This document shows, piece by piece, positions 10,360-26,538 of a stretch of DNA of 64,000 bases. The position numbers and the translations under genes are program-made. The first letter of the stretch is position 1; the number at the start of each line of letters is the position of its first letter. Location of the stretch: the sequence record PV805638.1. One strand, given 5' to 3'. This DNA comes from a phage. The notes below the pieces were generated by a model. That model was given only the letters and a program-made list of their open reading frames with translations, ran no database searches and was not told the DNA's origin.

Positions 10360-11412
10360 ATGGCGAGCATTGACTCCTTGACTGTATGTAATACACGTCA
10401 AGCCCGTAACTTTATTATCCGTGCCTTGCAAGCAGGTAACGTACCGTTCCTGACTTCATCACCGGGTATGGGTAAGTCTGCAATTATTCGTTCTATTGCA
10501 GAAGAATTTGGTATGAAGCTGATTGACCATCGTTTGTCTACTTCTGCCCCGGAAGACTTATCTGGTCTACCATTCCGTAATGGTGACCGTGCAGAGTTTA
10601 TCCCTTTCGCTGACTTATTCCCTATCGAGGGTGACGAAGTACCAGAAGGTTATAATGGCTGGCTCCTGTTCCTTGATGAGTTCAACTCAGCTAAAAAGGA
10701 AGTAGTAGCTGCTGCATACAAACTGATTCTAGACCGTATGACCGGACAGAAAAAACTTCACCCTAATGTGATGATTATCTGTGCCGGTAACAAAGCCACT
10801 GACCGAGCCATAGTTAACCCGCTGGGTACTGCAATGCAGTCCCGTGTTGTCCACTTCGAAATGGAACTCGACTTCGACATCTTTGTTGAAGACGTAATGA
10901 TTCCTCAAGAATGGGATGAGCGTCTGGTTGCATTCTTACATGCTAACCCTGGTTATCTGCATGACTTCGACCCTGCCCACAAGAACAAAACATTCTGTTG
11001 CCCTCGTACCTGGGACTTTGTTAACAAAGACCTCAAGAACCGACCAGAAGGTGCTTTGCCTGATGAAGATTCTATCTACTATGCTGGACACGTTACTGCC
11101 GGTAAAGCTACAGAGTTTGTTCAGTTCACTCAGGTATACAATCGTATGATTACGATTGAGAAGGTAGTCAAAGACCCATTAGGCTGTGCACTACCGGAAG
11201 ATAATAACCTGTGTTGGGCTACTGTTAACCATCTGGCTAACAAAACTACTGAAGATAACTTCGCTGATGTTCTTCAGTACATTGAACGCTTTAAAACGTT
11301 CACCCATAAGATTCTGTACTTCCGTACAGTAGGCAAAGCATTACCAGAAATTCAGGCTACCCCTGAATGGCGTAAGGCTGCTGCCAATATCTCTCGTTAC
11401 ATTCACGGATAA
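10360..11412 (+). CDS. MoxR-like AAA+ ATPase
   Basis: Walker A SPGMGKS, Walker B LLFLDEFN, MoxR-type sensor region; AGGAGA RBS. Confidence 0.7.
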   Translation: MASIDSLTVCNTRQARNFIIRALQAGNVPFLTSSPGMGKSAIIRSIAEEFGMKLIDHRLSTSAPEDLSGLPFRNGDRAEFIPFADLFPIEGDEVPEGYNGWLLFLDEFNSAKKEVVAAAYKLILDRMTGQKKLHPNVMIICAGNKATDRAIVNPLGTAMQSRVVHFEMELDFDIFVEDVMIPQEWDERLVAFLHANPGYLHDFDPAHKNKTFCCPRTWDFVNKDLKNRPEGALPDEDSIYYAGHVTAGKATEFVQFTQVYNRMITIEKVVKDPLGCALPEDNNLCWATVNHLANKTTEDNFADVLQYIERFKTFTHKILYFRTVGKALPEIQATPEWRKAAANISRYIHG

Positions 11413-11419
11413 TCACAAC

Positions 11420-12595
11420 ATGAACCAGATACCTCAGCACACACTTAGTGATGAACAACTCATGCGTGAGTATGACCGTATTCAGGCCCAAGCCTTCCTA
11501 GGCAAGTCTGCTGCGTTTTTTGGTTCATTGCTGTGTAGTCTTAAGTTCTCATGGAAACGTGAGGGTTGTCCCACTGCATGTACCGATGGGATAGAACTCC
11601 ATTTCAACCCTGACTTCTTTATCTGGATGTGCCCTGATGCAAGAGAAACAGTGCTAATGCACGAACTCTGGCATGTGGCATATCTGCATGGCATCCGTTG
11701 TGGAAGCCGTGACCCGGAAGTCTGGAACCAGGCATGTGACCACTTCATTAACCTTCAGTTAGAAGAAGATGGTTACAAGTTCACTGGTATCGACGAAGGT
11801 ATTTGCAAAGACCCTCAATATAAAGGATGGGTCGAAGAAGACATCTACGATGACCTGATGAAGAACCCTCAGAAAAGGCAGAAGCCGTCGGGGGGAGCTG
11901 GAGCAAGTCTTGCTGGCGACATGAAAGCCCCCTCTTCGGGGCAGTCCCAGGGTGCTGTTGTCAACAACGTAGTGCGTGCAATGCAAAGCCAGAAGATGGC
12001 TGGTGGAACAATGCCCGGTAAAGGTGCTGGTCGTATGGAAGAGGTTATTACCCAATTCCTTAAACCAGTAGTTCCATGGCAGGAAGTTCTGATGAACTTC
12101 TTTACCGACATTGATGACACACATTATACGTGGGCCAGACCTAACCGTCGCTTCACTGACGTCTATCTACCTTCTCTGGAAGATGATGAAGGACGCTTAC
12201 GACACTTAGCCTACTTTGAGGATGTATCCGGTTCTATTAGTAGTGCTGACTCTCTGCGTTTTAACTCAGAGGTTGCCTACGTTAAGAGCCAGTTCAATCC
12301 TAAGAAGATGACCCTAATTACCTTCGACGATATTATCCAAGAAGAAATAGACATCACTGAAGAAGATACTTTTGAAGAGATTAAGATTACTGGTCGTGGT
12401 GGTACAAACCTTGAACCAGTGCGCGAATGGATTATTAAGAATAAACCAACCGCTGCAATCATATTCTCCGATATGTATGTTCGTCCAATGGAAGAATTAC
12501 CATTTGATATCCCTATCATCTGGTGTGTTCTGAATAATCCTAATGCTACCGTACCTTTCGGGGAGGTAGTTCATATCCCTAAAGGAATGAAATAA
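11420..12595 (+). CDS. vWA-domain protein with N-terminal putative metallopeptidase (HExxH) domain (DUF2201-like)
   Basis: MHELWH HExxH motif; DVSGSISS MIDAS-like DxSxS; directly downstream of the MoxR ATPase. Confidence 0.6.
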   Translation: MNQIPQHTLSDEQLMREYDRIQAQAFLGKSAAFFGSLLCSLKFSWKREGCPTACTDGIELHFNPDFFIWMCPDARETVLMHELWHVAYLHGIRCGSRDPEVWNQACDHFINLQLEEDGYKFTGIDEGICKDPQYKGWVEEDIYDDLMKNPQKRQKPSGGAGASLAGDMKAPSSGQSQGAVVNNVVRAMQSQKMAGGTMPGKGAGRMEEVITQFLKPVVPWQEVLMNFFTDIDDTHYTWARPNRRFTDVYLPSLEDDEGRLRHLAYFEDVSGSISSADSLRFNSEVAYVKSQFNPKKMTLITFDDIIQEEIDITEEDTFEEIKITGRGGTNLEPVREWIIKNKPTAAIIFSDMYVRPMEELPFDIPIIWCVLNNPNATVPFGEVVHIPKGMK

Positions 12596-13101
12596 TGATT
12601 GTTAATGGTAATTCTCTATACCGTTCATCTCAATTGCTGGATGTCCCAGACCGTAAAGTATCCGAGCATGGTGTAAGCTATGGATTAGGTGAAGCTGGTT
12701 ATGATATTCGTATCAAACAAGACATTACCTTCTATCGCTTATTTGGATTGATTCCAATGGTGAAAATCGCTGATGGAAAACAAGTATCACGCCACTTCGG
12801 TAAGTTTGCATTGGCTTCAGCAATTGAGAAATTCAACATGTCCCCGTCCTGTGTAGCTATCGTTCACGATAAGTCCACATGGGCAAGACGTGCATTATCT
12901 GTGTTCAATACCGTAATAGAACCAGGATGGAAAGGGTATCTTACCCTCGAACTGGTCTATCATGGTCGTAAGAAACTGCATATCCCGGCTGGTGCTGGGA
13001 TAGCTCAAGTATTATTTCATCTGGTTCAAGAGCCTGCTAACTACAATGGCAAGTATCAGAACCAGGAAAACAAACCAGTTGCTGCAAGAAGCAGCAAATA
13101 A
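12595..13101 (+). CDS. dCTP deaminase / dUTPase-superfamily protein
   Basis: DPGWKGYLTLELVYHG ... IPAGAGIAQVLF ... YNGKYQNQ resembles dCTP deaminase conserved blocks. Confidence 0.65.
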   Translation: MIVNGNSLYRSSQLLDVPDRKVSEHGVSYGLGEAGYDIRIKQDITFYRLFGLIPMVKIADGKQVSRHFGKFALASAIEKFNMSPSCVAIVHDKSTWARRALSVFNTVIEPGWKGYLTLELVYHGRKKLHIPAGAGIAQVLFHLVQEPANYNGKYQNQENKPVAARSSK

Positions 13102-13110
13102 GGAAACAAC

Positions 13111-13311
13111 ATGTCAGTATTTCAAGTATCTCCTGTTGACAGTACCCAACGTAAAACTATTGTTGCAACTAACGTAGTAGATGTAGATGAAACCCCGACT
13201 GGTGCTGTAATTCATCTGATTGATGGACGAACTGTAACTGTAAAAGAAAGCTATCGTTCAGTACGTGGATATGTTCGTAAAGCTTTGACTGCTGACTCTG
13301 ACGCAGAGTAA
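13111..13311 (+). CDS. hypothetical protein
   Basis: 66 aa, AAGGAAA RBS. Confidence 0.45.
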   Translation: MSVFQVSPVDSTQRKTIVATNVVDVDETPTGAVIHLIDGRTVTVKESYRSVRGYVRKALTADSDAE

Positions 13312-13384
13312 GTAGCTGCCTAAATAGCCCAACTATGTTGGGCTATTTGTGAAGAAACTATCTCAACCTCACATAGGAACCATC

Positions 13385-13645
13385 ATGGAATCTTTAGCAG
13401 CAATCCTCGTTCTGTTATTTGCACTTGCTGTATACCTTATCCCTACTATTATTGCTTTTGCACGAGGCCATGCCTCTAAGTGGGGCATTGGTGTACTCAA
13501 TATCGTATTAGGCTGGTCTTTAGTCTTCTGGGTAGTAGCACTGATTTGGTCACTGTCTAATAAAGAACAGTCTCAGACTACAATCGTTAACGTTGGTAGT
13601 GGTAACCAGTACAACGTGTCTCAAACGAGCCTGTCTGATAAGTAA
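13385..13645 (+). CDS. membrane protein (2 TM)
   Basis: ATG 13385 with AGGAA RBS; ORF-track start 13349 falls in the upstream hairpin. Confidence 0.5.
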   Translation: MESLAAILVLLFALAVYLIPTIIAFARGHASKWGIGVLNIVLGWSLVFWVVALIWSLSNKEQSQTTIVNVGSGNQYNVSQTSLSDK

Positions 13646-13720
13646 CTAACCTAAGCATCATTGTATAGTGGTGCTTGTGGAAGTTACTTCCAGCTCATTA
13701 CTTATCCATCTCCTAATCCA

Positions 13721-13746
13721 AGCCCACCTAACCCGTGGGCTTTTTT
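13721..13746 (+). terminator. rho-independent terminator
   Basis: AGCCCAC...GTGGGCT hairpin followed by TTTTTT. Confidence 0.65.
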
Positions 13747-13762
13747 AATTACAGGTACTCTT

Positions 13763-14143
13763 ATGTCAAACAGACAAAATGGTAAGTCTATCTTATATGG
13801 ACTGGACTTAAGTAAACTGGAACAAACTGCAATGCTTACTTTAGGTATACATGACCAAGTAGAAGTGAATGGAATTGGTCCTGATGTTTGTGCAGCAATG
13901 CAAGCTGCTATTCAGAAAGGATGGACTAGTAGATCATTTAATGTTTTCCCATACATCCCTCCTGAACCTCATCTGAAATCTAAGGTAGACAGAATCATAG
14001 ATAAGTTCTGGCTTAGCCCATGCGGGGATGACATGCATCTTTACCTGGCTCAAATACAAAAGAATCCGCGTACTAAAGATGTGTTCAAAGGCAAAAGCAC
14101 TACCCACCATTACCCTTGGTATAGAAGAGGTAGTAAATACTAA
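13763..14143 (+). CDS. hypothetical protein
   Basis: 126 aa from the first ATG after the terminator; the ORF-track start 13661 reads through the terminator. Confidence 0.45.
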   Translation: MSNRQNGKSILYGLDLSKLEQTAMLTLGIHDQVEVNGIGPDVCAAMQAAIQKGWTSRSFNVFPYIPPEPHLKSKVDRIIDKFWLSPCGDDMHLYLAQIQKNPRTKDVFKGKSTTHHYPWYRRGSKY

Positions 14144-14586
14144 TGCGTATCCCATTCCTAAGAAAAAGGGAACGAAATCCTGTTCTTTATAATAAAGGTA
14201 TAGAGGATGAGTACGAACTCAACCGTAAAGCCCGTTCCTACGCAACAAAATTATTCATGGGGACTAGCAACCCTAATAGATTACTGGACTTTGTTTTCGA
14301 ACAAGTCTTTATCATATACAGCTTAGCTATGTCTGCTGGTTCACAAGAAGTAAGTGATAAGGCAAGATATGCTCTCTGTATGCTCCGGAAAGAGTATGAA
14401 GCCATCATGTATGAAGACTTGTACTCCTTTAAGAAAGAAACCGCTGTAGCGTGTTCTGTGGCTCTTACTGAAGGTATAGCAGTATTACAAGAACTACCCC
14501 GTAGTGAGTTTAAGCTGGTATATGTCCAGGCCAGGAGAATTACAGAAAACCGAAGTGGTATTACCAACTATCTAAGGTCATTCTAA
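14143..14586 (+). CDS. hypothetical protein
   Basis: 147 aa, TAATG coupling. Confidence 0.5.
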   Translation: MRIPFLRKRERNPVLYNKGIEDEYELNRKARSYATKLFMGTSNPNRLLDFVFEQVFIIYSLAMSAGSQEVSDKARYALCMLRKEYEAIMYEDLYSFKKETAVACSVALTEGIAVLQELPRSEFKLVYVQARRITENRSGITNYLRSF

Positions 14587-15530
14587 TGATTAAGGCAACT
14601 GTCATTGCAGATTCCGTTCATCATGTAACGGGTACTCGTATTACTACCTTTGAATTGGTTTATCCTCGATTCATTCACAGTGAGTTTATGACCCACCGTG
14701 TATTCAACCGAAATGCTTCAAGTAGTCGTGCTATCCCTACTTCTAAGTTTATTGAACAGGTTCGTAATGAACCAGTGATGCCAAGTCACTGGGGCAAGAA
14801 CCAGAAAGGTATGCAGGCATTTGAAGAATTGTCTGAAGACCAACGTAGTGATGCAACCTTTATCTGGGAACAGGCTGCATCCAGTGCTGCTACCTATGCA
14901 GAAATGCTTCGTCGTGGACAAGTACATAAGCAGATTGTTAACCGTATTCTGGAACCATTCACACATATTCGTGTAGTGGTAACTTCAACTAGCTGGGCTA
15001 ACTTCTATGGATTGCGTGACCATGAAGATGCTCAACCAGAGATTCGTGAATTAGCTCAAGCAATGCGTAAGGCTCATAATGAAAGTGTTCCATCTAAGCT
15101 GTCCCAAGGTGTGTGGCATCTGCCTTATATTCGCAAGATTGATTGTATTAACGCTTACGATCATTGCAAATATCAACGAGTTACTTGTGATAAACCAAGT
15201 GATGAAGAAGTTATAGGCTTACTGCTTAAAGTCTCTGCTGCTCGTTGTGCTCGTGCCTCCTATAACAACTTTGAAGGCAAGCCATCTACTATTAGTGATG
15301 ACCTTGCTCTCTTTGCTAAGTTGGTAGAGAAACAACCAATTCATGCATCACCTACTGAGCATCAAGCTACCCCGATGGACTTCAGTACCAAGTTTGTTAA
15401 CAACCAGAACCCATTAACCTGGGAACAGGGTGTTACTTCAATGGACCGTGAAGGTAAGCTGTATTCTGGTAACCTGTTAGATTTCATCCAATTCCGTAAA
15501 CTAATCCCCGGAGAAACAATTACAGAATGA
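14586..15530 (+). CDS. putative FAD-dependent thymidylate synthase (ThyX-like)
   Basis: THRVFNRNASSSRAIP resembles the ThyX RHR-x7-S motif; sits next to a dCTP deaminase. Confidence 0.5.
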   Translation: MIKATVIADSVHHVTGTRITTFELVYPRFIHSEFMTHRVFNRNASSSRAIPTSKFIEQVRNEPVMPSHWGKNQKGMQAFEELSEDQRSDATFIWEQAASSAATYAEMLRRGQVHKQIVNRILEPFTHIRVVVTSTSWANFYGLRDHEDAQPEIRELAQAMRKAHNESVPSKLSQGVWHLPYIRKIDCINAYDHCKYQRVTCDKPSDEEVIGLLLKVSAARCARASYNNFEGKPSTISDDLALFAKLVEKQPIHASPTEHQATPMDFSTKFVNNQNPLTWEQGVTSMDREGKLYSGNLLDFIQFRKLIPGETITE

Positions 15531-15763
15531 AACGCTTAGCTATCCAAGCAATGATTGTAAGTATCATCCTGGTTCTGGAATTTGTATTTGCACTACATGG
15601 TGCACAGAGCCTGGAAGAGATGTTTTTCGTAGTAGCTCGTTTCTCTGCGTGTGTTCTTGGCTTATGGTGTGTGTATTACTATGCACGCGACTATGTAGCT
15701 ATCAAGGAACATGATGATGCTAAGGAACGTCTACGACAATTCGTAGAAGAGAATCGTAAGTAA
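15527..15763 (+). CDS. membrane protein
   Basis: 78 aa, two hydrophobic helices, ATGA coupling. Confidence 0.5.
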   Translation: MKRLAIQAMIVSIILVLEFVFALHGAQSLEEMFFVVARFSACVLGLWCVYYYARDYVAIKEHDDAKERLRQFVEENRK

Positions 15764-15768
15764 ACCTA

Positions 15769-15795
15769 AGACCTCCTCCGGGAGGTCTTTTTTTG
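15769..15795 (+). terminator. rho-independent terminator
   Basis: AGACCTCC-TCCG-GGAGGTCT hairpin followed by TTTTTTT. Confidence 0.7.
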
Positions 15796-15822
15796 GTTTC
15801 ACTTACTGTCCCAGGAGGACTT

Positions 15823-16047
15823 ATGGCTAGTTGGTATGCAACTATGTTGGAGAAAGATTCCAATGGACTATACAGGGAATCCGTCGGTAGTTTTAAAAAC
15901 ATCTGTATAGATGGGCGTTTATGCACGATTAACGCAGTAGATATTGCAGAAGAAACCCTGTCTAAAGAATCAGGATATGCAGGGTTTAAGCTGGAAAAAC
16001 TTAATAAAGCCTGGAATTACAGAAATCCTTTTATTTATAAAAAATAA
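15823..16047 (+). CDS. hypothetical protein
   Basis: AGGAGG RBS before ATG 15823. Confidence 0.45.
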   Translation: MASWYATMLEKDSNGLYRESVGSFKNICIDGRLCTINAVDIAEETLSKESGYAGFKLEKLNKAWNYRNPFIYKK

Positions 16048-16056
16048 GGAAACAAT

Positions 16057-16269
16057 ATGCCTGCTAAATACCGTATCAAAGACACACCTTTAATGTGTGA
16101 GGGTGAGAAGGGTGACATTGTATATGCCTGTATCCAGGATGATTTCAATGCTGCTCTGATGTTAACCCAAATGACAAACACACTGCATGTATCAGTAACA
16201 CTGGACCCTACCGGTGACTATCCATGCTTCCCTATCCCTGCTCATAACCTGGAGCAAATCCATGATTAA
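16057..16269 (+). CDS. hypothetical protein
   Basis: 70 aa, AAGGAAA RBS. Confidence 0.45.
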   Translation: MPAKYRIKDTPLMCEGEKGDIVYACIQDDFNAALMLTQMTNTLHVSVTLDPTGDYPCFPIPAHNLEQIHD

Positions 16270-16570
16270 TCCTGAAGTTATTCATAGTAAAACTGGTAAA
16301 GCTGTTCCACTTAGCGATATTGCAGTTACCGGTGATATTGCTGCTTGTCCAGCTAATATCGCTTCCCTGTGTATGTGCATTGCTGCACTGGCAGAGGAAC
16401 GTAAATTATGGCTGGAACCAAGCAAAGAAATGGTACTGGCTGGTATGTCTGAACTGAATGCACTTCTGAAAGAAATGTATGACGAGAATGGTCAATTAGT
16501 TGAACCAACTGATGACCAAATTTCAGACGCTGTAGTATTTGTCCTTCAAGCAATGGCAAGTAAACGTTAA
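16262..16570 (+). CDS. hypothetical protein
   Basis: ATGATTAA overlap with previous stop. Confidence 0.45.
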   Translation: MINPEVIHSKTGKAVPLSDIAVTGDIAACPANIASLCMCIAALAEERKLWLEPSKEMVLAGMSELNALLKEMYDENGQLVEPTDDQISDAVVFVLQAMASKR

Positions 16571-16610
16571 TAAATATTAAGAAGCAACATTTAATCTGGA
16601 GAGTAAATAA

Positions 16611-19175
16611 ATGTTAGTCGCAGATTCCAATCAATCAGCCACTTCAGCGACACTGGGTGGCAAAGAAGCAATCGCCTTTGGCATCTCTGATGACCCGGCA
16701 TTCTTTCACGTATTAAGTACTTCCTTATATAACAACCCTACACTGGCAGTAGTCCGTGAGACTATCTGTAATAGTTGGGATGCTCATATTGAAGCAGGTA
16801 AGACTGATACTCCTATCCGTATCACTATTGATACTGACAATTTTATTACCTTCCGTGACTTCGGTAACGGGATACCAGATGAACTCATTGGTTCCATTTA
16901 TGGCGTCTATGGTGCATCTACCAAGAAGTCCAACAGTAGTGTTACTGGTGGCTTTGGCCTGGGATGTAAATCCCCATTCGCTTATACAGATAGCTTCCAG
17001 GTTACTTCATGGAACCAGGGAAAGATGTCGGTATATAACGTAGCTAAGGCTGCAATTGAGAATGATGGTAAACCGGGTATTGTTCCTATCGTTACTGGTA
17101 TTCCTACTAAGGAATCTGGTCTGGAAGTTAAATTCCAGCTAGGTAAACATGATGTGAATACCTTTGTGCATTACATCACGTCAATTGTATTTAACGGTGA
17201 AATTAAGGCTGAGCTTAGTCTTCCCAAACTTGTTCGTGAAGAAACGGGTAATAGTATTCAGCAGGGTAACTATACTCTACTGAATACACTAGGTATGTCA
17301 TTTGAACCTGGTTCATATGATATGTCTGATAGATGGTATCAAGGATATATGAGTAGCAGTAACATCTTTGTTCGCTACGGTAACGTAATGTACCCAATAG
17401 TATCTAGCCCGGCTAGTGAAGAAGCTGTAGGTCTTATTCTCAACTTCATGAATATCATTGGAGCTGATAATTTAGTAGTTCAGGCTGCACCAAATACACT
17501 AGCGATTGCTCCTAGTCGTGAAACTCTGTCTAACCAGAAGTTAACCGACGACGGCATTACTGCTCTATGTGTAGACTTAGTAGACCGTATGGAGAAAGAG
17601 ATTAAGGCTAAGATTCCTGAAGCTATTAAGCAGATTGAAGAATATGCCTCCCAATCTTCTACTCGTTACTGGGAATATCCATCTTTCTTGGGTGCTGTTA
17701 CATACAGAACTGTTCAACGCTATATGTCCTCTAGCTTGTGGGCTAAGCAACGTAAGCATCATATTAAGCACTGGCGTAATCTATCCAATAAGGCATTACT
17801 AGCTCGCCCTGAATATGCAGGTCTTAAGAGAATGTATGGTAAGGCTATGCGTGCTCTTAAGGATACCCGTAAAGATAGTACCAACCATTCTTTCCAGGAT
17901 TTGGTATATCGACATCTGCACTTACCTCAGCTTGCTGCTTTAAAAGCTACTGGTGTTAAGTGGTCTGGTTACATAATGAACCAGGGTAACAGTGTTGGCC
18001 TGGTAAAAGGTAAACTTACTGACTACTTTAAGATGGGCTATAACTCCCACCTAGGTATCGGTATATTCACTACCAAGAACGTTGTAGTTACCCGACGTTT
18101 CTCTGACTGTGCAGACTCTTTCTCATACTTCCCAGAGTACAACCGAGGTGACCTGGAGCGTACAGCTTTTGTTCACGTCGTTGGTCCTAAGAAGGGAGAA
18201 GCAGAAAAAGCTGTAGCTAAGTTCACTGCTATGGGTTATCGGGTAATTGACCTTACTCAATATAATGAGTGGGACAAGCCAACTAACTTCCGCAGGGAAC
18301 AAGCTAAGTTAGCTGCCGAGAAGCGTGCTAAGACAATAGCTGCCAATAAAACCAAAGTAAGCGGTAAAACTAATGCACTGGTTTCATTGAATGCAGTACT
18401 TGGTACTACTCTTGTACGAGATAAAAGTGGTGATTTGGTAACTAAACCGGTCATTGACAAGGCTTTTGCTGACCCAGCACGCCATGAGAAGTATGGTTTC
18501 GTCGAAGTAGAACAGCCTAAGTACTACGTACCAGCCAGTCAGGTTGTTTCTGGTAGACCAGAAACTGCCAAGATTGGAACCATGTGGAAATGGTATGAAC
18601 TGTCTGATGAGATGAAAGCAGGAACTGTTGTCTGTCGTAATCAAATCGAAGTTAACAAAGCCAAACGTCGTGGGGCTATTCACATTGACGATATTCGTCT
18701 TAATGAATTGATGTCTGTTATTACCAGCAAGGGATTCAAGAAGTACGCCACTGAACAACGTAATGGTGTTCTTGAGTATCTTGATTTAAATGACAAAGAG
18801 TACTGTGAAATCCTCGATATTCTTGGACTAACATTCAAACCATTACAGAGTCTGGTTCTTAAACCAGAGTATGAATGGGCATGTAACTTCCTAAGAAATC
18901 ATTCAAGTAACAAAGATAAACTGGTTGAGATGGGCCTCATTAAGTCAGTAGATGACTTGGAACCATATGTAAAGATGGTTAATCCTCGTATGCATAAGCA
19001 TTTCAAAGTACTTAACGAGTACAAAGGGTTATTTAGATATAGCTGGAATGATAATGACATCCTGCAAAGCCTGGATTTGAGTAGATTAATCAAACATCTC
19101 AAGAAAAATCCGGAGGATATTCCTGGATTTAAGTCCCTCTACCGTAATCGTCTAAATAAACTGAAAGGTAACTAA
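16611..19175 (+). CDS. rIIA: rIIA-like protein (N-terminal GHKL/Bergerat ATPase fold)
   Basis: 854 aa; N-box ETICNSWDA, G1 DFGNGI, G2 TGGFGLG; size and position as in N4-like phages. Confidence 0.65.
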   Translation: MLVADSNQSATSATLGGKEAIAFGISDDPAFFHVLSTSLYNNPTLAVVRETICNSWDAHIEAGKTDTPIRITIDTDNFITFRDFGNGIPDELIGSIYGVYGASTKKSNSSVTGGFGLGCKSPFAYTDSFQVTSWNQGKMSVYNVAKAAIENDGKPGIVPIVTGIPTKESGLEVKFQLGKHDVNTFVHYITSIVFNGEIKAELSLPKLVREETGNSIQQGNYTLLNTLGMSFEPGSYDMSDRWYQGYMSSSNIFVRYGNVMYPIVSSPASEEAVGLILNFMNIIGADNLVVQAAPNTLAIAPSRETLSNQKLTDDGITALCVDLVDRMEKEIKAKIPEAIKQIEEYASQSSTRYWEYPSFLGAVTYRTVQRYMSSSLWAKQRKHHIKHWRNLSNKALLARPEYAGLKRMYGKAMRALKDTRKDSTNHSFQDLVYRHLHLPQLAALKATGVKWSGYIMNQGNSVGLVKGKLTDYFKMGYNSHLGIGIFTTKNVVVTRRFSDCADSFSYFPEYNRGDLERTAFVHVVGPKKGEAEKAVAKFTAMGYRVIDLTQYNEWDKPTNFRREQAKLAAEKRAKTIAANKTKVSGKTNALVSLNAVLGTTLVRDKSGDLVTKPVIDKAFADPARHEKYGFVEVEQPKYYVPASQVVSGRPETAKIGTMWKWYELSDEMKAGTVVCRNQIEVNKAKRRGAIHIDDIRLNELMSVITSKGFKKYATEQRNGVLEYLDLNDKEYCEILDILGLTFKPLQSLVLKPEYEWACNFLRNHSSNKDKLVEMGLIKSVDDLEPYVKMVNPRMHKHFKVLNEYKGLFRYSWNDNDILQSLDLSRLIKHLKKNPEDIPGFKSLYRNRLNKLKGN

Positions 19176-19179
19176 TCTG

Positions 19180-21231
19180 ATGAAAATCGAACTGATTTCT
19201 ATCATCGCACTGGCAGTTGACAGTCGTAACCTTACACTGTGGAAGCCAGATGGCTCTACGGTTGTATACCCTCAGAGCGACCCACGGGTTGCTCGTATTG
19301 TATCTGAAGCACAGACTAAAGGTCTGGGCACTACCCAGGATCAAATAGAAGTAAACATTGCACCAGAAGTAGAACTTCGTACTGAATACCTGGAAGCAGA
19401 GAAAAACACCAACGGATTCGTTCGTTTCTTTAAGGTAGCTAAAGCTAAACTCAAAGAGTTCTTCGAAGATGGTACGGGTGTTTCACCAGCCCGTATCGTC
19501 TCAGATATTAAGCTAGGTAATCCTACTAAGACGCTGGTGTCTAAAGCTATGGATACCTACCTGGCTATTCAGGCTAATGAACCAGAAGTAACAGTAGCAG
19601 ATGGTTACTACGACAAACGTGACAATCTGATGTGGGTTACTGGTTGGGATAAAGACCATAACCATCTTGCACTGGTTCGTTTTATTAACGACGTACTTTG
19701 TTGGAGTCATAAGCATACTGATCATATTCTTGCACAGGAGTGGCCTATTGCAATTCGTGCAGTATCCGATGATGAAATGGGTGAGTTTGCTAAACAAGCC
19801 CAATACATCAAAGGTGTACACATTGTATTTACCAACCGTGGGGAAACACCACTGCCTTATGTGGAAGTGGTTAAAACTACGAACCAGGATAAGCTGGCTG
19901 CTGCTTCAGAGAAGCTGGCTGCATTAGGTGCTATCAGTACCGATGATGCTAACTTCCATACTGATGTGAAGGAAGACGAGGTGGTTGTTGCTGTTACCAA
20001 TAGTGGGGTTATCCCTGGAGTTGAGAACCTGCAACGTCATCTACGTCAGTCTGCCAAGCTGAAAGACTATAAGGGCTTTACCAAGTTCCTTGAGCGTCTG
20101 GCTCCGGTTATCAAAGACCGTCTGCACTCAGTGGAAGACCTGATGAAGTTCATGGAAACTGCTGAACTGCCTATCGCTGATGATGGCTCCATCCTGTTTC
20201 TGAAACGACTTAAGATCAAAGGCGAAGAAAATGGTAAACGTGTATTCGTTGACTGTCACTCAGGCAACATCCGTCAATGGGTAGGCTGTAAAGTACAGGT
20301 ACGAGAAGACCTGGTAGACCCTGACCGTCGTCGGGACTGCTCCAATGGCCTGCACGTAGCATCCATGAGCTACATCCGCACCTTCGGTGGTAACGTAACT
20401 ATCCTAGGTAAAGTAGCACCAGAAGATGTATTTGCTGTTCCTGAGTACAACACTAATAAGATGCGTGTAGCTGCGTATCACATTATTGCTGAACTACCGG
20501 AAGAGGAACGTTGCAACGTTAACAATGGTATCTATCTGTCTAATACAGAAGTAGGTAAGAAGTTACTTAATGATGCCATCGTTGGGAACCATAGTTCACC
20601 TACCACACTTGTTATGGTTGGCGGACATCGTGGCACTAACCTCAAATACACCAATCTATCATCTGGTTCCGTAGAACAATTCCGTACAGTTGCTAATAAA
20701 GAGGCACTGAATATGGAAGAGTCACTGAATGAAGCTTTAGCTGCTGAACCAGTGAAGGCTACTGACCTTAAACCTATTGTTAATAAGGCTCCTACCGTGA
20801 AAGAACAAATCCAGGAACTGATTAAAGAGTTCCTTAACGCAACTACTCCGGAAGATAAATTAGCTGCTGCTGACTTACTTGTGGAAATGCGAGGTAAGGC
20901 TCGTAAGCCATGGGCTGCTTTAGGTGTTGGTTCTGATGTGGTGGCTAAGATTGCTGATGTACGTACAACCTACACAGCTAAACCTATTGGCAAACCAAAA
21001 CCAGTGAAGCAAGCTAAGGTTCATCGCTCGGCTACTGCCACTAAGGTAGCACCGTCAGGTAAACACGCTGATAACCTGCGTAGCATCCTGAACGATACGT
21101 CCTACTCTGACTATCAGAAAGGTCATGCTCTGCAAGACTATAAGCGTCATGCTAAGAAGTCATTCACTGCAATGGGACTGACAGAAGAAGAAGCTAAGTT
21201 GGCTACCAAGCTGGTCAAGGCCGTTAAGTAA
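19180..21231 (+). CDS. rIIB: rIIB-like protein
   Basis: 683 aa, immediately downstream of rIIA (synteny only). Confidence 0.5.
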   Translation: MKIELISIIALAVDSRNLTLWKPDGSTVVYPQSDPRVARIVSEAQTKGLGTTQDQIEVNIAPEVELRTEYLEAEKNTNGFVRFFKVAKAKLKEFFEDGTGVSPARIVSDIKLGNPTKTLVSKAMDTYLAIQANEPEVTVADGYYDKRDNLMWVTGWDKDHNHLALVRFINDVLCWSHKHTDHILAQEWPIAIRAVSDDEMGEFAKQAQYIKGVHIVFTNRGETPLPYVEVVKTTNQDKLAAASEKLAALGAISTDDANFHTDVKEDEVVVAVTNSGVIPGVENLQRHLRQSAKLKDYKGFTKFLERLAPVIKDRLHSVEDLMKFMETAELPIADDGSILFLKRLKIKGEENGKRVFVDCHSGNIRQWVGCKVQVREDLVDPDRRRDCSNGLHVASMSYIRTFGGNVTILGKVAPEDVFAVPEYNTNKMRVAAYHIIAELPEEERCNVNNGIYLSNTEVGKKLLNDAIVGNHSSPTTLVMVGGHRGTNLKYTNLSSGSVEQFRTVANKEALNMEESLNEALAAEPVKATDLKPIVNKAPTVKEQIQELIKEFLNATTPEDKLAAADLLVEMRGKARKPWAALGVGSDVVAKIADVRTTYTAKPIGKPKPVKQAKVHRSATATKVAPSGKHADNLRSILNDTSYSDYQKGHALQDYKRHAKKSFTAMGLTEEEAKLATKLVKAVK

Positions 21232-21246
21232 TAGCCTGTTCAAATG

Positions 21247-21270
21247 CCCTCACTTATAATAAAGTGAGGG
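21247..21270 (+). terminator. terminator-like hairpin (weak U-tract)
   Basis: 8-bp stem CCCTCACT/AGTGAGGG with 8-nt loop, after rIIB. Confidence 0.4.
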
Positions 21271-21293
21271 TAAATTTGAAGAGGAAATGTACT

Positions 21294-21689
21294 ATGAGTT
21301 CTGTATACAGAGTTAATCGCAAAGCAACTGATGAAGACATCATTCGTATGAATGCTGTTGGTCTGTCCCTCGCAACTATCGCTAAGACGTTAGGGGTTCA
21401 CCCCACTACGGTTACTCTGCGATTGCGTTCTTTAAACATTGAACCTGCCGACACACGTCGGACGTTCATGGAGAATGTACTCCGTCCATTACCAACCCAT
21501 GTGGTAGATTGGCTATCAGAGCAAGTTGGTCCTGCTTATGAGATTCGTTCATATGTAAGGGACTTGATTCTGGAGGCATATAATAATCGCCACCTTAACC
21601 AAGAGAGTGAGCATGACAAGTTCATCCGTTTGTACGCTGGAAAACACACGGCAATGGTTTCTAAAAGCCGTACCGAATCCGACGAGTAA
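21294..21689 (+). CDS. putative helix-turn-helix DNA-binding protein
   Basis: AAGAGGAAA RBS; MNAVGLSLATIAKTLGVHPTTV HTH-like segment. Confidence 0.5.
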   Translation: MSSVYRVNRKATDEDIIRMNAVGLSLATIAKTLGVHPTTVTLRLRSLNIEPADTRRTFMENVLRPLPTHVVDWLSEQVGPAYEIRSYVRDLILEAYNNRHLNQESEHDKFIRLYAGKHTAMVSKSRTESDE

Positions 21690-22065
21690 GAATATTAGTA
21701 CCCAGATTGGTTGCCATCTGGAAGAAGTAGCAGAAATGCTAAACGCTATTACCAGTAAAACACCAGAGCGTGCCTCACAGATCGAGGCACTACGTGCAGC
21801 AATTGACCATGTGGGTAATCTGCTTAAAAAAGATAACAATATTGTTATCAAAGACTCAGTAGAACTACTGGACTCACTGGCAGATCAGATCGTTACAGCA
21901 ACTGGCGTCGGTACTTTCCTTGGGATGAATGTCCCTGGAGCATTGGCTGAGGTCAATCGCTCAAACTATTCCAAGTTCGAAGATGGAGAACCTATCTTCA
22001 ACGAGAACAAGAAAGTCATGAAGGGGAAAGATTATACTCCCCCGGATTTAACACCTTACATCTAA
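21607..22065 (+). CDS. MazG-like nucleoside triphosphate pyrophosphohydrolase (start uncertain)
   Basis: HLEEVAEML, ELLDSLADQIV, NRSNYSKF blocks; the only in-frame ATGs are 21607 (83-nt overlap with upstream gene) or 21736. Confidence 0.5.
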   Translation: MSMTSSSVCTLENTRQWFLKAVPNPTSKNISTQIGCHLEEVAEMLNAITSKTPERASQIEALRAAIDHVGNLLKKDNNIVIKDSVELLDSLADQIVTATGVGTFLGMNVPGALAEVNRSNYSKFEDGEPIFNENKKVMKGKDYTPPDLTPYI

Positions 22066-22086
22066 CCCTCTACGGAGGGTTTTTTA
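22065..22086 (+). terminator. rho-independent terminator
   Basis: ACCCTC-TACG-GAGGGT followed by TTTTTT. Confidence 0.65.
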
Positions 22087-22098
22087 CTGGAGATTTAA

Positions 22099-23408
22099 AT
22101 GTTTTCCAAACCTACCAAAGCCCCATTGAACCAGGGGCAAGAAGCGGTTGCGAAGGAGTTCTTCGACTTCCTGCTCGACCCTAATGCCACAGAGTTCGGA
22201 ATCAGTGGACCTGGGGGGACTGGTAAGACATTCCTGATGTCGCACCTAATTGATGACACTATGCCTGCGTATATGGAAACCTGTTCTCTGATGGGAACCA
22301 AGCCTCTGTATAACGAAGTTGTCATGACTGCGACCACGAACAAAGCTGCTGAAGTTCTGGCTCAAGCTACTGGGCGTCCAACGTCTACCTATCACTCCTT
22401 CCAGGGACTGATTGTTAAGAATGACTTTAAGACTGGTGAGGCTAATGTCGTACCGTCTAAGTCATTCTCTATTAAGAAGAACAAAATCATCTTCGTAGAC
22501 GAAGCATCCATGATTGACCGTCAGTTACTTAGGTATGCTCGTGAAGGTACTCACCAGTGCAAACTGGTATTCGTAGGCGATGCTTCTCAGCTTCTACCTG
22601 TTAAAGAGAGTAAGTCTCCAGTGTACGCAGGTAATATCCCAACACACTATCTGACTGAACAGATGCGTACCGATTCACCAGACTCAAAGCGTTGCATCAG
22701 CAATTGCGTGATACGGTGGAAGGTAAGACAGGCTTCCTGCCTATTAAATGTATTCCAGGCATTATTGACTGGGTGCAAGGGGAAGAGATGGAGAAACTGG
22801 TTCTCAGTCACTTCACTCAGCCTACCAATAGCCGTATTGTTGCTTACACCAATGACCAGGTTATTAATTACAATAACTACATTCGTGAAGCTAATGGCTA
22901 CGTAGGTGAATACTCCATTGGTGAACAACTAGTTTCTAACTCAGCTGTTCGCTTGGGCGGGGAAGACCGTCTGTCTATTGAGCAGGACGTAAAACTCATC
23001 GACCAGGATAGTAGTACTCGAATGATTAAGGTTACAGGTGACCTGGAACTGGAAGTCCGTGATAGTACTCTAGACCTTGGTTATGGTGGTATTGTTAGTG
23101 AAGTACCAATTCCTACCGACCCAGACTACTTCAACCGTTTGGTTAAGTGGTTAGGTAAAGAGAAGAACTGGGAACCTTACTTCCGTCTTAAAGAAACTAT
23201 TCCAGACCTGCGTGCTACTCATGCATGTACTGTTCATAAATCACAAGGCTCTACTTACGACACAATCTTCATTGATGCAGATGACCTCTCAAGCTGTCGC
23301 CAACCTGATATGGTTGCCCGTCTGCTTTACGTCGCTGTGTCTCGTGCCCGTAAGCGAGTAGTGTTCTATGGCAATCTTGCCAGTAAGTACGGTGGCCTAA
23401 CTTTCTAA
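22099..23408 (+). CDS. Dda/RecD-like SF1 DNA helicase, split between two reading frames (-1 shift near 22685..22695)
   Basis: Walker A GPGGTGKT and Walker B FVDEASM in frame 1 (to about 22690); helicase C-terminal motif VHKSQGSTYD...VAVSRAR in ORF 22692..23408. Confidence 0.6.
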
Positions 23409-23958: not shown

Positions 23959-26538
23959 ATGCGTTACATCACCTCTCAGGATACTGGCAAGTATCCTATT
24001 GCTATCCTCGGTCATCAAATCCGAAGGGAGGAGATGATTAAAACCTACCTGCTGCCTTATGACCTAAGCATGGAAGATTTCATCTTCCTTGAACTTCATT
24101 CTGCCCCAGGCAAAAAGAAGACCCCTGCAAGGGAGATTAAGGAGTTCATTCAGCAGGAACTGCAACAAGTACTGGATGATGCAGAGACTCAATACATTAT
24201 CTGTACCGATTCTGACTACTTTAAAATACTGACTAAGGAAGCTAAAGCAGAAGCTAACCTCGGCTATGTTTGTGATTCGGTATGGGGTAAGCAGAAGGTT
24301 ATCTATACACCCAGCTACAGACAGGTCTTCTACGACCCACCTGTAGTAAAGGCCAAGATTGCTCAGGGTATGGATGCATTACTTAACCACATCCGGGGAC
24401 AGTATGCTGAACCAGGGCAGGGAATAATTGAGTTTGAAGCCTACCCAGATACACCCGAAAAGATTAAAGCCTGGTTGGACCAGTTGCTTGAGATGAATAA
24501 GCCTCTGGCTATAGACATCGAATCGTTCGGTTTAAAGCACTATAACGCAGGTATAGGAACGATTACGTTCTGTTGGAGTAAGACACAAGGCATAGCCTTT
24601 AATGTGGACTATGAGCCGATTAAGGGGGCTACTGAAGCTCCTTATGGGCGTATTAACAGGAACGATGTTGTTCGTAACCTGTTACGTGAGTTCTTCATTA
24701 AGTACACTCAACGGCAGATGTATCACAACATTAGCTATGACGTGTACATACTTATCTATCAGTTATTCATGGATAACCTGATTGATACAGAAGGCTTACT
24801 ACATGGCATGGAAATCATGCTGCGTAATTGGGACTGTACTAAGTTAATCACCTACCTGGCTACTAACAGTTGCGCCGGTAATCACCTTAGTCTGAAAGAA
24901 CAGGCTCAGGAATATGCTGGTAACTATGCTCAGGACGATATTAAAGACATACGTCTTATTCCTAATGAGCAACTGTTACGCTACAACCTCATTGATGGTT
25001 TATGTACGTGGTACACCTACGAGAAGCACTGGGATACTCTCATTGCTGATGACCAACTGGATGTTTACAACAACATCTTTAAACCAGCCTGTGAAGACAT
25101 TATTCAGATGCAGTTAACCGGTATGCCCATGAACATGGAAACCGTTAACCAAGTGGCTGAAGAGATGGAAACTGACAGGAACCAGGCTTTGAAAACTATT
25201 CGTGAATCTAAGCTCATGAAGAATTTCACCCTGATGCTGCGTCAGGAATGGGTAGATGATAAGAATGCTAAGCTTAAGAAGAAGCAGGTAACACTGGCCG
25301 ATTGTGACATTGAGTTTAATCCTAACTCCGGTCCTCAATTACAGAAGCTGTTATTTGATTATATTGGCTTACCGGTTCTTGGTCTTACTAAGAGCAAGCA
25401 ACCTGCTACTGACGGTGACACTATTAAAGCACTGCGTACACATACGCAGAGTGAAGATGTTAAGGAACTGCTCAATGCACTTATCGACTATAAACTTGTG
25501 GATAAGATTATCACTAGTTTTATACCAGCTTTCAGGAATGCCCAACCGGGGCCGGATGGCTGGCACTATCTGTTCGGAAACCTCAATCTGGGAGGCACAG
25601 TCTCCGGCAGGTTATCGGCTTCAGAGCCAAATCTACAAACAATTCCATCCGGCTCTAAATATGCCAAGAAGATTAAGAAATGCTTCGAAGCCCCTCCTGG
25701 CTGGATATTTTGCGGTTTGGACTTCGCCTCGCTGGAAGACAGAATATCTGCATTGACTACTAAAGATCCTCAGAAACTTAAGGTGTATACCGATGGTTAC
25801 GATGGTCATAGTCTTCGTGCGTATGCTTACTTTGGCGAGCAGATGCCAGATATAGTAGACACAGTTGAGTCAATCAATTCTATTCAGACGAAGTACAAGC
25901 ACTTGCGCAGCGATTCTAAAGCCCCAACATTCTTGCTTACCTATGGTGGCACGTATATGGGCTTGATGAAAAACTGTGGCTTCTCAGAAGAGAAAGCTAA
26001 AACAACAGAGAAACGTTATCACGACCTCTATGTAGTTAGTGATATGTGGGTTCAGTCTAAGCTAGACGAAGCTGCTAAGACTGGTTATGTAACTGCTGCA
26101 TTTGGTTTGAGAGTGCGTACTCCTTTACTGGCTCAGGTTTTACGTGGGACATGTAAGACTCCATATGAAGCAGAAGCTGAAGGTAGAACTGCTGGTAATG
26201 CTTTAGGGCAAAGCTGGTGTCTACTGAATAACCGTGCTGGTTCAGAGTTTATGCGTAAAGTCAGAGCCAGTGAGTTCAGATTAGATATACGTCCTAGTAT
26301 TCACATTCATGATGCCCAGTACTTCATGATTCGTGACAATATGGATACCTTGCAATTCACGAACAAGCATTTGGTGGAAGCCGTTAACTGGCAAGACCAT
26401 CCTGATATTGCTCATCCAGAAGTTGGTTTGGGTGGGGAACTATCCTTGTTCTACCCAACGTGGGCTAACGAGATTGAGATTCCAAATCACGCTACCCCAG
26501 AAGAAGTTCATCAAATAATTCAAAAGGCATTCGCATGA
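23959..26538 (+). CDS. family A DNA polymerase with 3'-5' exonuclease domain
   Basis: 859 aa; exo motif DIESFG; RSDSKAPTFLLTYGGTYMGL (motif B-like) and IHIHDAQY (motif C-like). Confidence 0.75.
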   Translation: MRYITSQDTGKYPIAILGHQIRREEMIKTYLLPYDLSMEDFIFLELHSAPGKKKTPAREIKEFIQQELQQVLDDAETQYIICTDSDYFKILTKEAKAEANLGYVCDSVWGKQKVIYTPSYRQVFYDPPVVKAKIAQGMDALLNHIRGQYAEPGQGIIEFEAYPDTPEKIKAWLDQLLEMNKPLAIDIESFGLKHYNAGIGTITFCWSKTQGIAFNVDYEPIKGATEAPYGRINRNDVVRNLLREFFIKYTQRQMYHNISYDVYILIYQLFMDNLIDTEGLLHGMEIMLRNWDCTKLITYLATNSCAGNHLSLKEQAQEYAGNYAQDDIKDIRLIPNEQLLRYNLIDGLCTWYTYEKHWDTLIADDQLDVYNNIFKPACEDIIQMQLTGMPMNMETVNQVAEEMETDRNQALKTIRESKLMKNFTLMLRQEWVDDKNAKLKKKQVTLADCDIEFNPNSGPQLQKLLFDYIGLPVLGLTKSKQPATDGDTIKALRTHTQSEDVKELLNALIDYKLVDKIITSFIPAFRNAQPGPDGWHYLFGNLNLGGTVSGRLSASEPNLQTIPSGSKYAKKIKKCFEAPPGWIFCGLDFASLEDRISALTTKDPQKLKVYTDGYDGHSLRAYAYFGEQMPDIVDTVESINSIQTKYKHLRSDSKAPTFLLTYGGTYMGLMKNCGFSEEKAKTTEKRYHDLYVVSDMWVQSKLDEAAKTGYVTAAFGLRVRTPLLAQVLRGTCKTPYEAEAEGRTAGNALGQSWCLLNNRAGSEFMRKVRASEFRLDIRPSIHIHDAQYFMIRDNMDTLQFTNKHLVEAVNWQDHPDIAHPEVGLGGELSLFYPTWANEIEIPNHATPEEVHQIIQKAFA

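Follow-up and report, generated by a model that had tools for sequence, protein, structure and literature searches.

The stretch of DNA analysed here, referred to as the window, comprises 64,000 nucleotides of a phage (sequence record PV805638.1; one strand, 5' to 3') and carries three plus-strand genes of nucleotide metabolism, gp26 at 12595..13101, gp30 at 14586..15530 and gp36 at 21613..22065. It is quite probable that these are genes of a G7C-type phage whose products, a deoxycytidine triphosphate (dCTP) deaminase, a flavin-dependent thymidylate synthase (ThyX) and an all-alpha deoxynucleoside triphosphate (dNTP) pyrophosphohydrolase, shift the nucleotide pool from deoxycytidine (dC) to deoxythymidine (dT). 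The three genes are already annotated with the proposed functions in the RefSeq records of G7C and N4, so the finding as such is not new, and only the start of gp36 and the rearranged architecture of ThyX go beyond the existing RefSeq annotation.

Identification of the three genes

A megablast search with positions 12500-22100 against GenBank phages (82 records) assigned the window to Gamaleyavirus (Schitoviridae), that is to the G7C-like, N4-like coliphages of podovirus type, with vB_EcoP_G7C as best match (95.3% DNA identity at 95% coverage) and RudolfBernhard_Bas96 at 92.6%. The three open reading frames (ORFs), all on the plus strand and located where the initial annotation of this DNA had placed them, are orthologues of gp26, gp30 and gp36 of N4 and G7C, for which the G7C RefSeq names are dCTP deaminase, FAD (flavin adenine dinucleotide)-dependent thymidylate synthase and nucleoside triphosphate pyrophosphohydrolase family protein. 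Gene order and orientation are those of G7C, with gp24 ATPase, gp25 VWA protein, gp26, gp27, Imm, gp29 and gp30 followed by small ORFs, gp33 rIIA, gp34 rIIB, gp35, gp36, gp37 helicase and gp39 DNA polymerase, and the annotations of Bas96 and N4 agree with this order and these names. Compared with G7C, the window has one extra small gene (13763-14143), no HNH gene gp24.1 and a Bas96-like gp36. In amino acid (aa) sequence, gp26 and gp30 are 98.2% and 99.4% identical to their G7C counterparts, while gp36 is 97% identical to that of Bas96, about 76% to that of G7C and 75% to that of N4. Since gp36 is nearer to Bas96 than to G7C, unlike gp26 and gp30, the region is mosaic.

gp26, a predicted dCTP deaminase

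The 168-aa product of gp26 (12595..13101, + strand) matched the Pfam family DCD (PF22769) with an E-value of 1.7e-16 and 61.1 bits against a gathering score of 27, as well as phrog_1663 'dCTP deaminase' (3e-59). Together with the G7C gp26 annotation, these matches bear out the dCTP deaminase-like assignment made initially for 12595..13101. The best relatives of solved structure, PDB 4dhk (1.6e-11) and 3km3 (1.3e-10), are deposited as deoxycytidine triphosphate deaminase and have the KST(W/Y)AR…EP.W.GY.TLE blocks in common with gp26. In a BLASTP alignment (5e-13) with a manually entered E. coli Dcd sequence, S94 (12874-12876), R98 (12886-12888) and E119 (12949-12951) of gp26 fell on the catalytic residues S111, R115 and E138. 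On these grounds gp26 is, by sequence, a divergent member of the dCTP deaminase family.

gp30, a divergent ThyX with a putatively relocated segment

The initial annotation had proposed a ThyX-like protein with an RHR...S motif at 14586..15530 (+ strand), and the 314-aa product of this gene, of the phage gp30 type, does match the family. Pfam Thy1 (PF02511) was matched at 2.3e-14 (54.1 bits against a gathering score of 24.8), over profile positions 59-190 only, and phrog_85 'thymidylate synthase' at 1e-113. An AlphaFold2 (AF2) model built with 34 relatives reached a predicted local distance difference test score (pLDDT) of 89.4 and a predicted template modelling score (pTM) of 0.88. Foldseek comparison of this model with the PDB returned 125 matches at E<=0.001, of which the best 50 were all ThyX or ThyX-like PolB, with a probability of 1.0 and a target-normalised template modelling (TM) score of up to 0.61. 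Consequently, gp30 is, as judged from its sequence features, a divergent member of the ThyX family, with the fold of canonical enzymes such as T. maritima TM0449, PBCV-1 A674R and M. tuberculosis ThyX. Proteins of the gp30 type were found in 1037 phage records and formed 2810 clusters at 50% identity (E<=1e-30).

The architecture of gp30 departs from that of the canonical enzymes, which have about 220 aa. In gp30, beta1 runs directly to beta2 without the helices usual between them, and the alpha1-alpha2/H..EH segment follows the core. This segment, aa 205-259 (15198..15362, + strand), comprises two helices and the H253-A-S-P-T-E-H259 loop, is the counterpart of the N-terminal alpha1-alpha2/H53..H59 part in canonical ThyX, and in gp30 (…LLKVSAARCARASYNNF…DLALFAKLVEKQPIHASPTEH) resembles the missing part as it stands in T. 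maritima (…LSAVRAARVSFD…HLIEYLMKHGHETPFEH). Compared with canonical ThyX, gp30 also has an extra C-terminal tail of 55 aa, in which Q302 and R304 are invariant.

The relocation was supported by profile tests in rearranged order. When the segment was moved between beta1 and beta2, the Pfam Thy1 score rose from 52.3 to 65.4 bits and the match widened to profile positions 13-190, while the controls (six composition-preserving shuffles, one reversed segment and one segment-free construct) scored 50.7-53.3 bits. In the second test, a 19-sequence profile in rearranged order reached 31.6 bits (9e-7) with the T. maritima ThyX chains, compared with 18.3 bits (0.0086) for the gp30 profile in native order, and its alignment with T. 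maritima ThyX ran collinearly across both the H..EH loop and the (R/T)HR motif. Restoring the canonical order thus gave 13 bits more in two independent tests, and the collinear ThyX order is not that of gp30. The partial coverage of gp30 by the curated models is explained by this rearranged order of segments. The C-terminal fragment of gp30 alone, on the other hand, gave no ThyX match, either as a single sequence (Pfam, PDB) or as a 20-sequence profile; the non-collinear piece reported by HMMER reached only 2.7 bits, which is not significant alone; and no description of a permuted or rearranged ThyX was found in the searchable literature. On balance, the sequence comparisons lean towards gp30 representing a non-collinear ThyX variant in which the segment with the H-x-S/T-P-x-E-H loop of the flavin/folate site lies behind the catalytic core and the first of the two motif Arg residues is an invariant Thr. 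With the same leaning, besides this phage and the N4-like phages, more than 1000 phage genomes and about 2800 clusters of proteins (50% identity) would carry this variant.

Despite the altered segment order, the known dUMP (deoxyuridine monophosphate)-binding and flavin-site residues are retained. The substrate-loop motif T36-H37-R38-x7-S46-x-R48 (14691..14729, + strand; canonically RHRx7SxR), as read from the sequence, aligned with the T. maritima motif RHRIASYNELSGR. Among the 34 relatives, T36, H37, S46, S47 and R48 are invariant and R38, the equivalent of T. maritima R80, nearly so (at least 90%); the equivalents of T. maritima H79 and S88 are among the invariant positions. R48, R120, N139 and R144, which align with T. 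maritima R90, R147, N169 and R174, are all invariant in the family, and H253, S255, P256, E258 and H259 of the relocated loop were placed on T. maritima H53, T55, P56, E58 and H59; the counterparts of the H53..H59 loop, H253 among them, are likewise invariant. The changes relative to T. maritima ThyX are R78 to T36 and Y91 to A49.

If the rearrangement is true and functionally relevant, the gp30 tetramer could build its active site in another way than the ThyX enzymes studied so far, and its response to inhibitors or its chemistry might possibly be different as well. A rearrangement relative to every ThyX of solved structure would matter for modelling and inhibiting these common phage enzymes.

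Another unusual ThyX was noted in the N4-like roseophage Ruegeria phage vB_RpoP-V13, whose 'thymidylate synthase ThyX' (L009:592-2112) has 506 aa, about twice the usual length, and matches the ThyX of the window only over residues 22-169, at 27% identity. As a matter of speculation, such a protein is compatible with an origin of the gp30 type by tandem fusion and loss.

gp36, an all-alpha NTP pyrophosphatase-like protein

The 150-aa product of gp36 (21613..22065, + strand) matched phrog_671 'nucleotide pyrophosphohydrolase' at 1.3e-34, and its residues 36-147 were aligned by phmmer (7.4e-5) with PDB 3nl9, a putative nucleoside triphosphate (NTP) pyrophosphohydrolase (YP_001813558.1, DUF2166). 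In 3nl9, Glu43/Glu47 and Asp95/Asp99 are metal ligands, Asn126 discriminates the deoxyribose and the N-terminal helix recognises the base (PMC2954211), and E38, E41, D87, D91 and N118 of gp36 map to these five residues. The predicted metal ligands of gp36 are E37/E38/E41 (21721-21735) and D87/D91 (21871-21885), and the predicted deoxyribose-discriminating Asn is N118 (21964-21966), all on the plus strand. In seven diverse members of the gp36 family, W15, F16, A19, P21, E37, E38, E41, D87, D91 and N118 are invariant. As regards family, the MazG-like assignment made initially for 21607..22065 thus holds, through phrog_671, 3nl9 and the EExxE and DxxxD blocks.

The same superfamily includes DR2231, the MazG-like, dUTP (deoxyuridine triphosphate)-hydrolysing NTP pyrophosphatase of D. 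radiodurans. gp36 has EExxE, DxxxD and the sugar-discriminating Asn in common with DR2231 and 3nl9, while the similarity in sequence is marginal, with E-values of 0.04 (single sequence) and 0.0095 (profile) against DR2231, and where 3nl9 stacks the sugar on the aromatic pair Tyr102/Phe103, gp36 has Val/Thr. In Pfam, nothing was retrieved for the gp36 of the window at E<=10, and a weak PRA-PH match was seen in 3 of 7 relatives (best E 0.025). A 7-sequence gp36 profile performed worse against the PDB than the single sequence, with de novo designed TIM barrels on top and 3nl9 lost, and repeating the profile search for gp36 relatives hardly broadened the set. The AF2 model of gp36 (pLDDT 86.7) is all-helical with five helices. 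This monomer model failed to superpose on the crystal dimers, with a TM score of 0.37-0.43 for DR2231 and a root-mean-square deviation of about 11 A; it probably misses the dimeric or segment-swapped bundle. Among the viral models of BFVD, Foldseek matched it with 'NTP-PPase-like', 'MazG' and 'DR2231-like' models at 5e-11 to 5e-3. Membership of gp36 in the all-alpha NTP pyrophosphatase superfamily is supported by these comparisons.

Start of gp36 and overlap with gp35

The gene upstream of gp36 is a gp35 homologue (21294..21689, + strand; 131 aa; phrog_6377 at 3e-73) encoding a small helix-turn-helix (HTH) protein. The phrog_6377 alignment starts at residue 11 of this GTG-started ORF, HTH_38 and HTH_23 were matched weakly, and the gene length of 396 nt is identical in G7C and N4. 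The 3' end of gp35 overlaps gp36. The codon at 21607 is GTG, and the in-frame ATGs lie at 21613 and at 21736, the latter just past HLEEVAE and leaving 109 aa. The initial annotation had taken the start as unsettled between an 83-nt overlap with the upstream gene and the loss of the HLEEVAE helix. The loss of the helix does apply to a start at 21736, but the 83-nt overlap belongs to GTG 21607, and ATG 21613 gives 77 nt. Public gene calls in the gp36 family do show this ambiguity (150, 146, 131 and 109 aa), but comparison favours ATG 21613.

With this start, 77 nt (21613..21689, + strand) encode both the C-terminal tail of gp35 and residues 1-25 plus part of codon 26 of gp36, including its N-terminal helix with the invariant W15 and F16, and A19. 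The G7C and N4 annotations both carry the same 77-nt gp35/gp36 overlap. Homology to the gp36 of the window starts at residues 1-9 in very distant phages (tblastn). Where the upstream gene is not gp35, there is no long overlap: Pseudomonas phage Zuri has a 4-nt overlap, and the gp36 N-terminus is encoded without any overlap in Vibrio phage BT-1011 and behind a 188-nt gap in Rhizobium phage Y38. Upstream of the EExxE motif the frame is open in all of 39 related viral contigs, and an in-frame ATG precedes the conserved W(F/H/Q) N-terminal helix in 35 of these 39 loci. Both the gp36 ATG and a purine-rich stretch 6-13 nt before it are kept in 13 N4/G7C-like sequences. In these 13 sequences, the most variable codon position changes from position 3 of the gp35 frame ahead of the overlap (0.445) to position 3 of the gp36 frame within it (0.392, compared with 0.219 at position 3 of gp35). 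This shift of the wobble diversity to the gp36 frame indicates that the overlap is constrained mainly as gp36 coding sequence.

A start at ATG 21736, giving 109 aa and no dual-coding overlap, is what many automatic gene calls yield and would avoid the 77-nt overlap. However, it would lose the invariant ligands E37/E38/E41 and the W15/F16 base-recognition helix, although that helix is encoded in all 39 related loci, the wobble diversity in the overlap tracks the gp36 frame and the helix predicted at residues 8-19, encoded within the overlap, is part of the folded gp36 model; this start is very improbable. By sequence comparison, it is well supported that gp36 spans 21613-22065 and starts at ATG 21613, and the public calls of 109-146 aa then are truncations. 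Further work should rely on the 150-aa form that begins inside gp35, as the calls of 109-131 aa are without the metal-binding helix. A programmed frameshift fusing gp35 and gp36 was also considered and dropped, since a conserved ATG with a purine-rich leader belongs to gp36 itself, and gp36 occurs on its own in phages without gp35.

Proposed pathway

Whereas the comparisons above showed the orthology of the genes, their family or fold, the conserved catalytic residues, the gp36 start and the reordered ThyX, all enzymatic activities and the coupling of the pathway are inferred, as follows. gp26, a metal-independent dCTP deaminase of the dUTPase fold, would convert dCTP to dUTP and NH3. gp30 would convert dUMP and methylenetetrahydrofolate, with reduced FAD, to deoxythymidine monophosphate (dTMP) and tetrahydrofolate (THF). 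gp36, translated from ATG 21613, would act as an all-alpha, Mg2+-dependent dNTP pyrophosphohydrolase. Lying among replication genes, the trio most likely moves the pyrimidines of the host from dC towards dT along dCTP, dUTP, dUMP and dTMP; dUTP would be converted to dUMP by the Dut of the host, by gp36, or by the two together. The phage would in this way duplicate the enterobacterial dTMP route with its own deaminase and with a ThyX that regenerates THF and needs no DHFR. The joint role put forward in the initial annotation, feeding of dUMP to dTMP and cleaning of the nucleotide pool, is plausible and is the standard reading for N4-like phages. A shift towards dT would supply a genome of roughly 43% G+C; the G+C content of the window is 40-48%, and that of E. 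coli, at about 51%, is higher. Low G+C content has likewise been invoked for an N4-like roseophage carrying a dCTP deaminase and a thymidylate synthase (PMC11981692).

The proposed chemistry and order of steps are like those of E. coli Dcd-Dut-ThyA, and gp26 is homologous to Dcd and keeps its catalytic residues. Unlike E. coli, the phage has the flavin-dependent ThyX, which releases THF and requires no DHFR, in place of ThyA, and it is without a trimeric Dut, the only candidate dUTPase being an unrelated all-alpha enzyme. In the complete annotation of G7C, no further nucleotide-metabolism gene was found (trimeric dUTPase, dCMP deaminase, ribonucleotide reductase, thymidylate kinase or DHFR). 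Phage T4 redirects deoxycytidine nucleotides to dUMP and dTMP with a pyrimidine module made of the dCTPase-dUTPase gp56, the dCMP deaminase Cd and the ThyA-type Td. None of the three phage enzymes described here is in the same family as those of T4. In T4, it is the monophosphate that is deaminated, and dCTP is kept out of the DNA, of which there is no sign here.

It is possible, though doubtful, that gp36 acts as a dUTPase. Going further, gp36 might be hypothesised to be the dedicated dUTPase of a self-contained phage shunt from dCTP to dTMP.

Alternative functions of the three proteins

Several results weigh against a dC-to-dT shift performed by these three enzymes. Both gp26 and gp30 score under the cut-offs of the corresponding NCBIfam equivalogs (79.2 bits with 92.8 required for TIGR02274, and 56.5 bits with 87.9 required for TIGR02170), and the gp30 motif, THRVFNRNASSSR, is THRx7SxR and falls outside the strict RHRx7S signature, so that the RHR read in the initial annotation is THR. 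For gp36, no Pfam or NCBIfam match was obtained, the curated MazG-type families PF03819, PF01503 and PF09934 included, and Foldseek comparison of its model with the PDB gave nothing at E<0.8, with designed helical bundles on top. Biochemical or genetic tests of gp26, gp30 or gp36 of N4 or G7C were not found in the searchable literature. In addition, gp36 relatives are present in Vibrio podophages and cyanophages; Vibrio and Synechococcus phages are absent among the top host genera listed in the dCTP-deaminase search, and the one Vibrio locus inspected, that of phage BT-1011, has no neighbouring Dcd or ThyX gene, so that gp36 does not require a tie to a dTMP route. These observations on relatives also speak for a gp36 that works outside the dTMP route, as a general house-cleaning or pool-biasing dNTPase (e.g. 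one preferring dCTP and dGTP) or in another role, which is a serious possibility even if somewhat less than an even one. The host already has Dut, and the MazG of one cyanophage is reportedly dCTP/dGTP-preferring. The base-recognition residues of the N-terminal helix appear to differ from those of dimeric dUTPases, as they already do in 3nl9 (PMC2954211), and the likeness to the dUTP-hydrolysing DR2231 is marginal (E 0.01-0.04). Against this, the numbers of records with gp36-like and with dCTP-deaminase-like proteins nearly match in Escherichia, Erwinia, Klebsiella and Rhizobium phages, both proteins are present in the N4, G7C and Bas96 genomes inspected, and a phage dCTP deaminase, by raising dUTP, would make extra dUTPase capacity useful. 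A house-cleaning or pool-biasing role of gp36 and a role as dedicated dUTPase are about as likely as each other.

The other alternatives concern gp26 and the purpose of the trio. If gp26 were bifunctional, acting as dCTP deaminase and dUTPase, or were chiefly a dUTPase, it would yield dUMP itself and gp36 would be unneeded in the pathway. gp26 does reach 26.4 bits with Pfam dUTPase, over the gathering score of 22, and it matches PDB 2yzj, deposited as 'hypothetical dUTPase', at 4.6e-5. With 2qxx/4a6a, the bifunctional dCTP deaminase of M. tuberculosis, the match is at about 1e-6. Some archaeal 'dCTP deaminases' are actually dUTPases (PMC5122711). The far higher DCD score (61 bits), the best PDB matches 4dhk and 3km3, which are deaminases, and the presence of the catalytic Ser, Arg and Glu argue otherwise and make this reading unlikely, even if a monofunctional and a bifunctional (DCD-DUT) gp26 are inseparable from sequence alone. 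The composition of the trio, with its divergent ThyX, also resembles the modules of phages in which thymidine is modified or replaced. The pre-replicative module of T-modifying phages comprises a dCTP deaminase, a dUTP pyrophosphatase and a thymidylate-synthase homologue (bioRxiv 10.1101/2025.03.26.645540), and phages with dU-DNA combine a dCTP deaminase with a dTTP pyrophosphatase (PMC12697855). However, the described dUMP hydroxymethylases are ThyA-family enzymes (PMC8989533), whereas gp30 keeps the ThyX dUMP-binding residues and the flavin-site loop. The deaminases of dU-DNA phages are of the Zn-dependent dCMP-deaminase family, unlike gp26 (PMC12697855), and were discarded for this reason as a guide to its function. 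The G7C annotation is without a kinase, glycosyltransferase, dTMP phosphatase or other modification gene. To our knowledge, N4-type DNA has not been reported as modified. Replacement or hypermodification of thymidine by the trio (dU-DNA or bases derived from 5-hydroxymethyldeoxyuridine) is therefore hardly to be expected, in comparison with the ordinary supply of dTMP proposed above.

Genomic context

The differences from G7C noted above lie outside the three genes themselves in two cases. The extra ORF at 13763-14143, located between Imm and gp29, encodes 126 aa, matches phrog_12812 (unknown function) and is also present in Bas96. The HNH homing endonuclease gp24.1, found in G7C between gp24 and gp25, is absent from the window at 11412-11420. 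Downstream of gp36, the RecD/Dda-like helicase gp37 is split into the overlapping ORFs 22099-22905 and 22692-23408, with a break at about 22681/22682 caused by a single-base deletion relative to G7C gp37 ('CACCAG-ACTC' compared with 'CACCGGAACTC'), the remainder of the gene being 98% identical. The break is an artefact of sequencing or assembly, or else the frameshift is genuine and affects an essential replication gene. The DNA polymerase at 23959-26538 is of the N4-like A-family group, whose members are reported in a preprint to have an N-terminal uracil-DNA glycosylase (UDG)-like domain that has lost its catalytic residues (bioRxiv 10.1101/2025.03.26.645540). Such a domain is worth noting beside a phage dCTP deaminase, which would raise dUTP.

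Between rIIB and gp35, a perfect 9-bp stem with a 6-nt loop was observed at 21247-21270 (CCCTCACTT ATAATA AAGTGAGGG), and a stem_loop is annotated at the matching place in G7C. Directly after the gp36 stop codon, a consensus scan alone detected a terminator-like hairpin followed by a T run (22064-22081, + strand), so that the two hairpins bracket the gp35-gp36 pair. Further terminator-like hairpins, likewise consensus matches only, lie at 13720-13742, after Imm, and at 15768-15789, after the small ORF following ThyX. Given these hairpins after Imm, the post-ThyX small ORF and gp36, the three genes may belong to separate transcription units, which may fit their dispersed placement.

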